Positions 58,173-60,262 of a stretch of 64,000 bases of DNA are shown here, piece by piece. Position 1 is the stretch's first letter. Each line of letters begins with the position of its first letter. The translations under genes and the position numbers were made by a program. Below the pieces are notes generated by a model, which saw only the letters and a program-made list of their open reading frames with translations, made no database searches and was not told where the DNA came from. This DNA is from Dictyostelium discoideum (taxonomy: Eukaryota): contig CM000152.2 of assembly GCA_000004695.1 (NCBI GenBank), positions 96,001 through 160,000 on the forward strand, given 5' to 3'.

Positions 58173-58426
58173 ATGAAAGAGAAAATTATTAAAGCTGTGG
58201 TTCTTGGTGATGTAACAATTGGTAAAACATCATTATTAGTTACAAAAAAAATTGGATTTCCATTGGAATATATACCCACAATATTTGATAATCACTATTT
58301 CGAAATAAAAATAAATGACCAAATTATGAGAATTGGTTGTTGGGATACTGGTGGTGGTGAGGAATATCCTCGTATAAGGATGTTTTTTTTTATTTTTTAT
58401 TAAAAATTTTAATTATTATTTTATTT

Positions 58427-58465
<39 letters not shown>

Positions 58466-59011
58466 AGGACCATTATCATATCCACAAACAAATTTATTTT
58501 TAATTTTATTTTCAATATCTTCAAGAAATTCATTTAATAATTGTGAAACATATGTATGTAATTTAATTTTAATAATATATATTTGTTTTTTTTTTTTTTT
58601 TTTTAATCACATATTAATAATAAATAAAATAAAAAGTGGTTACCTGAAGTGACAAAATTTTTACCAAGTGTACCAATAATATTAGTTGGCACAAAAACGG
58701 ATTTAAGAAATTGTGATGATTATAAAGATAAATCAACATTTGTAACATATGAAGAAGGATTGGAGATGAAGGATAAAATTAATGCATCTGCATACCTAGA
58801 ATGCTCATCATTATTAAATAAAGGTGTAGATGATTTGTTCGATACAATGGCAATCATTGGTAATAATGACCTAAAATCAATAATTCCAAATCAATTACTT
58901 AGAGATCATTATAACCAATCACAAAGGAGTGAAATTTATGAAGCTCAAAGAAATAATTATGAAAATAATAACAATAATAATAATAATAATAATAAATGTA
59001 TAATTTGTTAA
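58173..59011 (+). CDS. Divergent Rho/Rac-family small GTPase with C-terminal CAAX box (CIIC); 3 exons (58173..~58375, 58468..58553, 58637..59011)
   Basis: G1 KAVVLGDVTIGKTSLL (GxxxxGKT). Switch I YIPTIFDNHY. G3 WDTGGGEEY instead of WDTAGQE[DE]Y, so the catalytic Gln is absent. Exon 2 PLSYPQTNLFLILFSISSRNSFNNCETY. Exon 3 WLPEVTKFLPSVPIILVGTKTDLR...YLECSSLLNKGVDDLFDTMA...KCIIC*. The exon-1 donor reads ATAAGGATGT where the paralogue has TTGAGTATGT, so it is either a weakened donor or an upstream GTATAA is used. Confidence 0.7.
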
Positions 59012-59064
59012 ATAAAAAAATGAAATTAAAAATTTTAATTATAATAATAATAATAATCCTTTTC

Positions 59065-59110
<46 letters not shown>

Positions 59111-59235
59111 TTATTCAAATTTGTGAAACATAAAAAAAATAAAGAACCAAAATATTAATAAAAATGGAAATTATATAATAAAAAAAAAACAGGTTATTAT
59201 TATCACATTTTATTTTTCTAAACCAAACTAAAACA

Positions 59236-59276
<41 letters not shown>

Positions 59277-59489
59277 ACCAAAATGAAAATAAAAAATTAA
59301 AAAATTAAAAAAAATTAAGATATTTATAAATTTTGTGCTTATTTTAAAATTAACCAATCAAAACTGACCAACAATCACTTAATATTTTGACTTTTTTTTT
59401 TTTTTTTTTTTTTAATTTTTAATAGGAAGTTTTTTTTTTTTAAGTTTTTGAAAAAAAAAAAAAAAGTTTTATTTATTATTATAAATAAA

Positions 59490-60262
59490 ATGGAAGAAAA
59501 TAAAATTAAAGTGGTATTGGTAAAACATCTTTATTGTATACAAAAAGGTAGAGGTACTTTTGAAACATACAATCCTACCTTATTTGAAGATCATATAAAA
59601 ATAAACAAAGATGGTAAAGAATATAATTTAGATTGTTGGGATATTAGCAGTGGTGCTGAGGATTATTCTCGTTTGAGTATGTCTTATAGTTAAATTTTAT
59701 TATATATAGGTTTTTTTTTTTTTTTTTTTTTTTTTCATTTGATTATTCAGTTTTATTTATTCTATTTTTAATTTTATATTTCTGTTAATAAAAAAACAGG
59801 ACCACTTTTATATCCAAATACAAATGTATTTTTTATTTGTTTTTCAATATCTTCAAGAGACTCATTTAATAAATGCACATGGGTATGTATTTAATTTCCA
59901 CCAACGAATATAAATAAATATTATTCAGTAAATTAATTTTTTCTATTTTGGGAAAAAAAAATTAAAATAAAAAGTGGGCCAAAGATTTAACTGAATATTG
60001 TCCTGACGTACCAAAGATATTGGTAGGAACTAAAATAGATTTAAGGGATGATAATGATCCAAATAAATCTGATTTTGTAAAATATAAAGAAGGTATAAAG
60101 ATGAAGGATAAAATTAATGCATCTACATACATAGAATGTTCGTCATTATTAAATAAAGGTGTAAATGATTTATTTGATACAATTTCAATCTTTAGTGACA
60201 ATAGAATACAAAGTAATTGTAATAATAAAAATCATAAAGAAAATAAATGCATTATTTGTTAA
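59490..60262 (+). CDS. Second, tandemly duplicated Rho-like GTPase paralogue with intact exon structure and CAAX box but a P-loop destroyed by compensating frameshifts. Possible pseudo-GTPase or pseudogene. 3 exons (59490..59676, 59800..59882, 59975..60262)
   Basis: Exon 1 MEENKIKVVLVKHLYCIQKGRGTFETYNPTLFEDHIKINKDGKEYNLDCWDISSGAEDYSRL. The DNA segment ttggtaaaacatc is identical to the paralogue's I-G-K-T-S codons but is read one base out of frame. The frame is restored ~30 nt later inside an A-run, so GKT is lost. Exon 2 (R)PLLYPNTNVFFICFSISSRDSFNKCTW. Exon 3 WAKDLTEYCPDVPKILVGTKIDLRDDNDP...YIECSSLLNKGVNDLFDT...KCIIC*. Canonical GTATGT donors in phases 1 and 0. Confidence 0.6.

Follow-up and report, generated by a model that had tools for sequence, protein, structure and literature searches.

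The tandem pair racN and probable racQ of Dictyostelium discoideum: a likely young pseudogene in the laboratory lineage and probable base errors in the AX4 reference

The window, a 64,000-nt stretch of the Dictyostelium discoideum AX4 genome, carries two Rho-family genes in tandem (Table 1). The spliced translation of gene 1 (58173 to 59011, + strand) is identical to XP_642068/Q54YY4, the racN product (DDB_G0278009), and that of gene 2 (59490 to 60262, + strand) is identical to XP_001134575/Q1ZXJ6, which is annotated as "Rho GTPase." Gene 2 is most likely racQ (DDB_G0278011), because the dictyBase ID of racQ adjoins that of racN, the two being neighbors in the supplement of PMC3188802. Assignments to racO and racM were discarded, as the window contains none of the published racO and racM primer sequences and RacM is not the same protein. 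A search of the window for a third rac gene found none. The first-pass annotation, made from the sequence alone, had described two divergent Rho GTPases in tandem, each with a CAAX box, and a shared three-exon structure, and both points were confirmed: the genes lie on the same strand, both match the Ras-family profile (Pfam E=2e-32 for gene 1 and 3e-27 for gene 2), and both spliced models have three exons. Rac1 is the best solved relative of both. The two genes would form a paralogous pair on chromosome 3, as part of the dictyostelid-specific racM/N/O/Q expansion of Rac-like genes. Both are already catalogued; what is probably new is a racQ P-loop deletion confined to the laboratory lineage, together with probable base errors in both reference models.

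Table 1. Coordinates of the features of racN (gene 1) and gene 2 in the window
Feature	Position	Strand	Details
racN annotated exons	58173-58371, 58468-58553, 58637-59011	+	219 aa
racN P-loop GDVTIGKT (AX4 reference)	58206-58229	+	sequence; reads as GxxxxGK[ST]
racN switch II DTGGGE	58344-58361	+	Gln61 equivalent is Gly62
racN exon-1 donor region GTATAAGG	58372-58379	+	annotated AX4 model splices at GT 58372
Six AX4-only racN substitutions	58215, 58218, 58252, 58364, 58379, 58405	+	exon 1 and intron 1
racN TKxD; ECSSL	58691; 58799	+	sequence
racN CAAX box CIIC	58997-59008 (stop to 59011)	+	kept in all six orthologs
Gene 2 exons	59490-59676, 59800-59882, 59975-60262	+	185-aa ORF in AX4 reference
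16-nt deletion junction	59516/59517	+	common to AX4 reference and AX2-like assembly
Out-of-frame remnant IGKTSLLYTK	59516-59545	+	ATG frame reads (L)VKHLYCIQK
A>G (59536) and additional G (59547 or 59548), AX4 reference only	59536-59548	+	missing from AX2-like assembly and all orthologs
Gene 2 switch II DISSGAE	59640-59660	+	one extra residue in DxxG; Gln61 equivalent is Ala
Gene 2 TKxD (TKID); ECSSL	60029; 60134	+	sequence
Gene 2 CAAX box CIIC	60248-60259 (stop to 60262)	+	CTIC in D. citrinum ortholog

We compared the AX4 reference with assembly GCA_054883475 (locus tags ACTFIT), which was built from Illumina short reads and Nanopore long reads. We infer that this assembly represents AX2-214, since it is nearly identical to AX4 and AX2-214 is the sole laboratory strain in the PMC12745789 project; it is referred to here as AX2-like. 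RacN scores 112 bits against Pfam PF00071 (cut-off, 21.6) and matches Rac1 with E=6e-44, the region of the Rho insert helix, which has about 13 residues between beta-5 and alpha-4, being 5 residues shorter in that alignment, and its top nondictyostelid matches are RhoG, Rac, and RhoL, not Rnd/RhoH. The G3 (DTGG), G4 (TKTD), and G5 (ECSSL) motifs are all present. The P-loop reads GDVAVGKT in the AX2-like assembly and GDGAVGKT or GDAAVGKT in wild relatives, the bases at 58215 and 58218 being peculiar to AX4. The racN orthologs of six assemblies have the same three exons, and racN dN/dS lies between 0.2 and 0.5. Gly62 is kept in RacN orthologs from D. discoideum to D. firmibasis, and the Gly12 equivalent is Val in the laboratory lineage and Gly or Ala elsewhere; RacN therefore carries neither the catalytic Gln61 nor, in the laboratory lineage, the Gly12 of a classical cycling Rho protein.

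As had been noted at first sight, both genes encode TKxD, ECSSL, and CIIC, and both have lost the catalytic Gln, with Gly in its place in gene 1 and Ala in gene 2; in gene 1, the loss extends to all RacN orthologs and to the paralog RacM. Because of this conservation, GTPase deficiency of RacN is a reasonable prediction from the protein sequences. Given a Gly at the Gln61 equivalent and a variable Gly12 equivalent, RacN would be expected to hydrolyze GTP poorly and to be controlled mainly via its expression, as in atypical Rho proteins. A review places the peak of RacN expression at 5 h of development. RacN is most likely an ordinary, lineage-specific Rho without Gln61; it appears to be conserved, selectively maintained, and prenylatable, with a Gly12 equivalent apparently free to vary (G, A, or V), and is a candidate naturally GTP-locked Rho.

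In the window, gene 2 has canonical GT..AG introns and a continuous ORF. This ORF has no GxxxxGK[ST] in G1 (the ATG frame reads VVLVKHLYCIQKG), and its alignments to Pfam and to Rac1 begin only at residue 25 or 26. In an AlphaFold model of the 185-aa AX4 product, the alpha-1 helix is missing and pLDDT falls below 60 over residues ~11 to 30, with the remaining G domain modeled confidently. G3 also departs from DxxG (DISSG, one residue too many); D. citrinum keeps DING.

Relative to its orthologs, gene 2 lacks 16 nt, a deletion by which it lost most of its P-loop codons and its frame; in intact orthologs, the P-loop region reads VFVGDKVGKT. Past the junction, ATTGGTAAAACATCTTTATTG (from 59516) encodes IGKTSLL in the +1 frame, and the ATG frame gives LVKHLYCIQKG. 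The nucleotides for IGKTS are thus present and out of frame, as first observed, but the cause is this deletion and not a 1-nt shift. Nor is the frame restored by a 1-nt loss in an A-run, as had been proposed: the A-run has the same length in all orthologs, and the sole restorer of the frame is a 1-nt insertion, the extra G at 59547/59548 (AAAAAGGTAG versus AAAAAGTAG). In the AX2-like assembly, which lacks this G, the ATG frame stops after 35 codons and no Met occurs in the exon-1 part of the downstream frame; the assembly's own annotation (P0108) fuses racN to the remainder of racQ. The AX2-like downstream frame does read SGIGKTSLLYTKSRGTFETY..., with GKT in the same frame as the remainder of the gene, so that racQ might conceivably function in laboratory strains despite the frameshift by means of ribosomal frameshifting, RNA editing, or an unannotated upstream exon supplying a start in the GKT frame. 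We regard this as scarcely tenable, as stops lie directly upstream in the GKT frame (GRK*N*SGIGK), exon 1 offers no Met, and the product would be without beta-1 and the first P-loop Gly. To our knowledge, no such rescue mechanism has been described for the rac family.

Gene 2 is intact in four other assemblies. Two wild D. discoideum isolates preserve the P-loop as GDKVGKT, which is one residue short, and D. citrinum preserves it as GESNVGKT; it is also intact in D. cf. discoideum; like the wild isolates and D. citrinum, D. cf. discoideum, a cryptic sister species, is without the 16-nt deletion. With intact orthologs elsewhere and a lesion in both AX4 and the AX2-like assembly, gene 2 has the characteristics of an unprocessed pseudogene. 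Its dN/dS between species is 0.4 to 0.55, and the AX4-lineage branch, outside the scrambled codons, carries 6 synonymous and 6 nonsynonymous changes (omega ~0.25), which argues for a recent inactivation. Pseudo-GTPases, which are nucleotide-free G-domain scaffolds, are conserved as such under selection. For gene 2, the AX4 reference is the only sequence with an open P-loop-less frame; the AX2-like assembly has a frameshift, and the other lineages have kept GKT. Hence, of the two fates initially offered for gene 2, a young pseudogene fits, the deletion being missing from wild relatives in which GKT is kept, but an intact ORF retained as a nucleotide-free pseudo-GTPase does not, because that ORF hangs on a single G missing from an independent assembly. 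We conclude that racQ is most likely a young pseudogene in the laboratory lineage. It would have been born by tandem duplication before the discoideum/citrinum split, with switch II already degenerate, and in the NC4-derived laboratory lineage the 16-nt deletion would then have taken the P-loop and shifted the frame, leaving a young unprocessed pseudogene.

Beside the racN orthologs of D. dimigraforme and D. firmibasis, a search for a second Rho gene found none apart from a short candidate relic of racQ exon 1 in D. dimigraforme, with a weak match (E=0.01); the D. firmibasis locus has no copy. Together with the NC4-lineage frameshift, these cases make racQ loss look recurrent, and they illustrate birth-and-death turnover in the dictyostelid Rac expansion. 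According to a review, RacQ is expressed during development with a peak at 1 h, which fits either a transcribed pseudogene or a retained gene. The active Rac forms cloned by Li et al. (2023) cover the whole family "except for RacQ."

Over 15.9 kb, AX4 and the AX2-like assembly differ by 14 substitutions, which are tightly clustered, the AX4-only clusters lying at 52678 to 52696, 55806 to 55973, 58215 to 58405, and 59536 to 59547. In the racN cluster (58215 to 58405), four changes alter amino acids, one destroys the splice donor, and one is intronic; the probability of at least 6 substitutions in 191 bp is ~2e-6. At 17 of 17 polarizable sites, the AX2-like assembly agrees with the outgroup, and AX4 is always the odd one out. 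The AX4-only spectrum comprises 4 transitions and 10 transversions, which is not nitrosoguanidine-like, and mutagenesis of the AX3 lineage by this agent was rejected on that ground. Gene conversion from racQ or another paralog would account, as judged by eye, for at most one of the six racN bases (ATTGG at 58218 resembles the racQ junction) and was rejected. Exact-sequence look-ups in a collection of 15 billion proteins gave no match for either gene's exon-1 ORF, in the AX4 or the AX2-like form, for the exon-3 ORFs, or for the 221-aa RacN, and a 31-mer spanning the racQ lesion had 0 matches in metagenome contigs.

The donor of racN exon 1 provides a further comparison. At the canonical homologous position (58378 to 58379), AX4 reads GG, where GT stands in the AX2-like assembly and in every other strain and species compared. 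The official 219-aa model uses a GT located 6 nt upstream (58372); use of the canonical donor would end exon 1 at 58377 and give a 221-aa protein reading RIRPLSYP. This 221-aa "GG-donor" model was absent from the databases searched. A primer that Li et al. (2023) used to mutagenize racN agrees with the spliced coding sequence of the AX2-like assembly at 29 of 29 positions, including the GAT codon and the ATA-A/GA-CCA junction, and with the annotated AX4 coding sequence at only 19 of 29; as it may stem from Ax2 rather than Ax3/AX4 cDNA, what it confirms is the AX2-like sequence, not what AX4 cells carry. The GG reported earlier is thus present in the AX4 reference, but its reading as a mutated donor is contradicted by GT in every other assembly and by the canonical RIR/PLS junction in this cDNA-based primer.

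These observations lead us to infer that the AX4-only bases are most likely errors rather than real mutations of AX3/AX4. The 185-aa racQ ORF with its extra G, the racN GG donor, and residues T15, I16, I27, and E64 are found in the 2005 AX4 reference only and would represent local base-calling errors. The early caveat that the indels might be sequencing errors was apt. Restoration of GxxxxGKT in gene 2 by resequencing, named beforehand as a refuting outcome, did not come about; the AX2-like sequence instead removes the frame restoration.

Alternatively, the AX4 reference could be right: the deletion would have been compensated by the +1 G in AX3/AX4 or in an NC4 subline, yielding a 185-aa nucleotide-free CAAX pseudo-GTPase, and racN exon 1 would carry five real extra changes, including the shifted donor. 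The continuous ORF and canonical introns of gene 2 speak for this, as do the intact and confidently modeled C-terminal two thirds of its G domain with TKID, ECSSL, and CIIC and the RacQ transcripts reported in the review. AX3 was obtained through mutagenesis, which makes extra mutations conceivable. We nevertheless consider this reading unlikely. Some 17 lineage-specific changes would have to be placed within 16 kb, every one of them in AX4 and not one in AX2; they are tightly clustered, extend to intergenic DNA, and are mostly transversions. It is very improbable that, with no selection and only decades available, an insertion 31 nt away from the deletion would happen to restore the frame; the time is too short for selection to have "retained" gene 2; and loss of the P-loop and alpha-1 should, on the structural model, destabilize the fold. 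That the extra G in particular is real in AX4 cells, so that a compensatory frameshift revived a prenylated, P-loop-less RacQ during laboratory strain history, we treat as a long shot. If so, AX4, unlike AX2, would make a Rho-fold protein without bound nucleotide, which might titrate Rho effectors or GDIs. Such a protein would act as a dominant modifier of cytoskeletal phenotypes in one strain and would show a pseudo-GTPase in the course of its birth.

Conversely, the AX2-like assembly could be wrong and the racQ ORF intact in all NC4 derivatives. Its long homopolymers are systematically shorter than those of AX4, which shows that it is not error free, and the racQ difference is one of length, G versus GG. 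Still, assembly errors would not yield the ancestral state at every one of 17 sites, of which 14 are substitutions; Illumina short reads were used besides the Nanopore long reads; and the published cDNA primer independently has the AX2-like GAT and the canonical splice junction. We judge such an error highly improbable. Taken together, a known gene pair in which racQ was recently broken in the laboratory lineage, AX4-only features that are reference errors, and a RacN without Gln61 is the reading that we hold, with fair confidence, to be probable.

The main value of this reading lies in curation. If the AX4-only bases are errors, Q54YY4 (219 aa) should become a 221-aa RacN reading GDVAVGKT...S27...D64...RIRPLSYP, Q1ZXJ6 (185 aa) would be a racQ pseudogene in NC4-derived strains, and the count of functional rac genes in laboratory strains would drop from 20 to 19. 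In that case, the comparison of AX4 with the AX2-like assembly would also indicate that the 2005 reference still contains clusters of base errors, through which ORFs can be gained or lost.

Among known systems, the pair belongs to the Dictyostelium racM/racN/racO/racQ subfamily (dictyBase; Sucgang et al. 2011, PMC3188802; Filic et al. 2021, PMC8305917), gene 1 being RacN and gene 2 (Q1ZXJ6) most likely racQ; both are lineage specific, with no D. purpureum ortholog. RacM shares the Gln61-to-Gly change of RacN (DTAGGE) and has a KCIIL tail. RacN resembles Rnd1 to Rnd3, RhoH, and RhoBTB in being substituted at the Gly12 and Gln61 equivalents, in its CAAX box, and in its expected, sequence-predicted GTP-locked and expression-regulated state; however, it is not orthologous to them, is closest to Rac1/RhoG-type proteins, and appears to have a shortened Rho insert. 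Like racK_ps, the one recognized rac pseudogene of D. discoideum, the AX2-like racQ is a frameshifted, unprocessed, decayed rac copy, but racQ is catalogued as a gene and has intact counterparts in wild relatives, and its inactivation is very recent. Finally, the racQ ORF of the AX4 reference, a G domain without Walker A, recalls the pseudo-GTPases CENP-M and the pseudo-G domains of p190RhoGAP; unlike these, the P-loop-less racQ ORF is confined to a single reference sequence and is interrupted in a sister laboratory strain.

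The two genes lie in an extremely AT-rich region with short GT..AG introns, and their products match the Pfam Ras family (E=2e-32 for gene 1 and E=3e-27 for gene 2), with Rac1 as the closest solved structure for both. By exact-sequence look-up, gene 1 encodes RacN of Dictyostelium discoideum AX4 (Q54YY4, XP_642068), and gene 2 an unreviewed AX4 "Rho GTPase" (Q1ZXJ6, XP_001134575). The D. purpureum genome paper, in its supplement, gives racN (DDB_G0278009) and racQ (DDB_G0278011) neighbouring identifiers, and racM/N/O/Q form a four-member expansion (PMC3188802). Gene 2 is not racM or racO, since published primer sequences of both had no match within the window and the RacM protein differs; moreover, no third Rho gene was found within the window. 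Thus, by adjacency and elimination, we infer that gene 2 is racQ. Both genes are already catalogued in the Dictyostelium rac family of 20 genes plus racK_ps. They are lineage specific, without D. purpureum orthologues, and a protein search found no orthologues outside close relatives.

Features of the racN-racQ region and AX4-only differences from the AX2-like assembly
Feature	Position	Strand	Description
Gene 1 (racN)	58173-59011	+	three ORF blocks, spliced to 219 aa; donor CCTC/GTATAAGG at 58372
Gene 2 (racQ)	59490-60262	+	three ORF blocks, spliced to 185 aa
AX4-only cluster	52678-52696		4 substitutions in 19 bp
AX4-only singleton	53548		1 substitution
AX4-only cluster	55806-55973		2 substitutions (55806, 55845) and 2 nearby non-homopolymer indels (TA, T)
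AX4-only cluster in racN	58215-58405		6 substitutions (58215, 58218, 58252, 58364, 58379, 58405)
AX4-only cluster in racQ	59536		1 substitution (A>G) and the extra G

The assemblies used for comparison derive from the Nanopore and Illumina project of Holland et al. 2025 (PMC12745789), which covers laboratory strain AX2-214, wild D. discoideum CR116C and OT3A, cryptic species M4B and S6B, D. citrinum, and D. dimigraformum. One of them, the AX2-like GCA_054883475 (locus-tag prefix ACTFIT), differs from window positions 48145-64000 by just 14 substitutions across 15.9 kb; as AX2-214 is the sole laboratory strain of the project, this assembly almost certainly represents that strain, which derives from NC4 as AX4 does. 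The tandem pair, with the same three-exon structure, was present in two wild D. discoideum (locus-tag prefixes ACTFIW and ACTFIR), D. cf. discoideum, and D. citrinum, while D. dimigraforme and D. firmibasis have a racN-like gene alone at the locus. Downstream of the D. dimigraforme racN orthologue (L006, ~5300-5360), tblastn (E=0.01) picked out a short stretch of open reading frame similar to racQ exon 1, NIKVVFVGGEVGKLS; a stop follows it, and racQ exons 2 and 3 were not found beside it. This stretch may be what remains of a decayed racQ, in which case the duplication would be older and a separate loss would have occurred. Over 58173-60262, AX4 and the two wild loci (L001 and L003) show a synonymous divergence of ~0.13-0.16, which greatly exceeds the nucleotide diversity of ~0.003 given for the species as a whole (bioRxiv 10.1101/2025.10.22.684067) and is consistent with these tropical isolates being deeply diverged.

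To define the racQ lesion, exon 1 was aligned with its orthologues at the nucleotide level. Intact orthologues read ...AAAGTGGTATTTGTTGG[C/T]GATAAAGTTGGTAAAACATC..., encoding VVFVGDKVGKTSLL. The window has lost 16 nt between 59516 and 59517, and with them the P-loop and the original frame. Because the AX2-like assembly has the same deletion and wild relatives are intact, the deletion is real and, among the genomes available, restricted to the laboratory lineage. By contrast, an extra G at 59547/59548, 31 nt downstream, occurs in the AX4 window and is absent from the AX2-like assembly (AAAAAGGTAG versus AAAAAGTAG). Without this G, the ATG frame reaches a stop after 35 codons; the downstream frame is preceded closely by stop codons and offers no Met within exon 1. 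The continuity of the racQ ORF therefore hangs on one base, present in the 2005 reference alone. The out-of-frame IGKTSLL remnant described in the first-pass annotation is there, but its suggestion of a retained pseudo-GTPase fails, because the P-loop-less ORF is not conserved. In the deposited AX2-like annotation (L002 4001-6068; L008 10001-12068), racN is fused to the racQ remainder as a 381-aa chimera (P0108), with ...NNNKC joined straight to TFETYNPT...; this fusion is evidently a gene-predictor work-around for the racQ frameshift.

The 14 AX4/AX2-like substitutions fall in tight clusters, and the probability of at least six lying within one 191-bp stretch is ~2e-6. The AX2-like base was ancestral at 17/17 outgroup-polarisable differences. 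In racN, the AX4-only substitutions comprise four amino acid changes (A15T, V16I, S27I, and D64E), one intronic change, and a donor GT-to-GG change, which accounts for the GG seen earlier at the homologous donor position. The groups between 52678 and 55973 lie in intergenic or other-gene DNA, so the clustering is not rac specific. Each of their AX2-like bases agrees with the outgroup, which suggests that these differences are local miscalls in the 2005 AX4 reference. Furthermore, a racN mutagenesis primer of Li et al. 2023, who worked with Ax2 or Ax3 cells, matches the AX2-like spliced CDS at 29/29 positions versus 19/29 for the annotated AX4 CDS; the match covers both the GAT of codon 64 and the canonical junction ATA-A/GA-CCA (R-I-R-P) (PMC10072221). 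The same authors cloned active forms of every Rac "except for RacQ" (PMC10072221). That the AX4-only bases are instead real AX3/AX4-specific mutations appears unlikely, and nitrosoguanidine damage as their source was rejected, since 4 transitions versus 10 transversions do not resemble its spectrum. The simplest reading is that the AX4 reference carries short runs of base-calling errors. One run would fortuitously re-open the racQ frame; another would damage the racN donor, pushing annotators to a GT 6 nt upstream and costing Ile-Arg from the conserved RIRPLSYP. Long A/T homopolymers (57833, 58431, 59069, 59238, and others) each fall 1-8 bases short of their AX4 length in the AX2-like assembly, none of them in coding sequence here; this is probably Nanopore compression, though slippage may also explain it.

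Pairwise Nei-Gojobori dN/dS was 0.2-0.5 for racN. Between species, gene 2 gave 0.4-0.55; thus, it was formerly constrained, though fast evolving. On the AX4 lineage, with the scrambled codons left out, gene 2 accumulated 6 synonymous and 6 nonsynonymous changes (omega ~0.25), indicating that most of the branch was under constraint and that inactivation was recent. On the lineage common to AX4 and the AX2-like assembly, racN acquired 9 synonymous and 1-2 nonsynonymous changes; four further nonsynonymous changes are all exclusive to the AX4 reference.

At the protein level, the motifs noted earlier were found in place: TKTD (RacN) or TKID (gene 2), ECSSL and a CIIC before the stop in both, and an altered switch II, DTGGGE or DISSGAE. 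Rac1 alignments bear out the proposed loss of the catalytic Gln, the Gln61 position being occupied by Gly (RacN) or Ala (gene 2), and place one additional residue in the gene 2 DxxG. Resemblance of gene 2 to Rac1 and Pfam begins only at residue 25-26, and in AlphaFold's model of the 185-aa AX4 ORF the alpha-1 helix is missing and residues ~11-30 have low confidence, the remaining domain being well modelled. Such a protein, if made, could not bind nucleotide. Intact RacQ orthologues are also unusual: within the discoideum clade their P-loop, GDKVGKT, is one residue short and switch II is degenerate, while D. citrinum has a P-loop of canonical length (GESNVGKT).

RacN retains G1, G3, G4, G5, and the CAAX box. 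Its Gln61 position is Gly in 6/6 species, a change common to RacM and RacN. Codon 14 (58212-58214), equivalent to Gly12, varies: two wild D. discoideum and D. citrinum encode Gly with GGG, D. cf. discoideum encodes Ala with GCA, and the laboratory lineage encodes Val with GTA and thus has a natural "G12V" in a protein already without Gln61. In Ras and Rho proteins, such Gln61 and Gly12 changes cause very slow, GAP-insensitive hydrolysis, and by analogy the same is predicted for RacN, which would be a GTP-locked, membrane-anchored Rho controlled by abundance. A review places the peak of its expression at 5 h of development (PMC8305917). In exon 3 (58637-59011), the laboratory lineage lacks a three-residue WKD (RDH---YNQSQ versus RDHWKDYNQSQ in L001, L003, and L004), and the C-terminal poly-Asn tract varies in length among strains.

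Altogether, the observation is real but ordinary: a known gene pair, one copy freshly broken in the laboratory lineage, with probable reference errors on top. It yields curation corrections and a small example of how genes arise and die within the Rac expansion. In laboratory strains, racQ behaves as a second rac pseudogene, comparable to racK_ps, while RacN would work like the atypical Rho proteins of the Rnd/RhoH type, of which it is not an orthologue.
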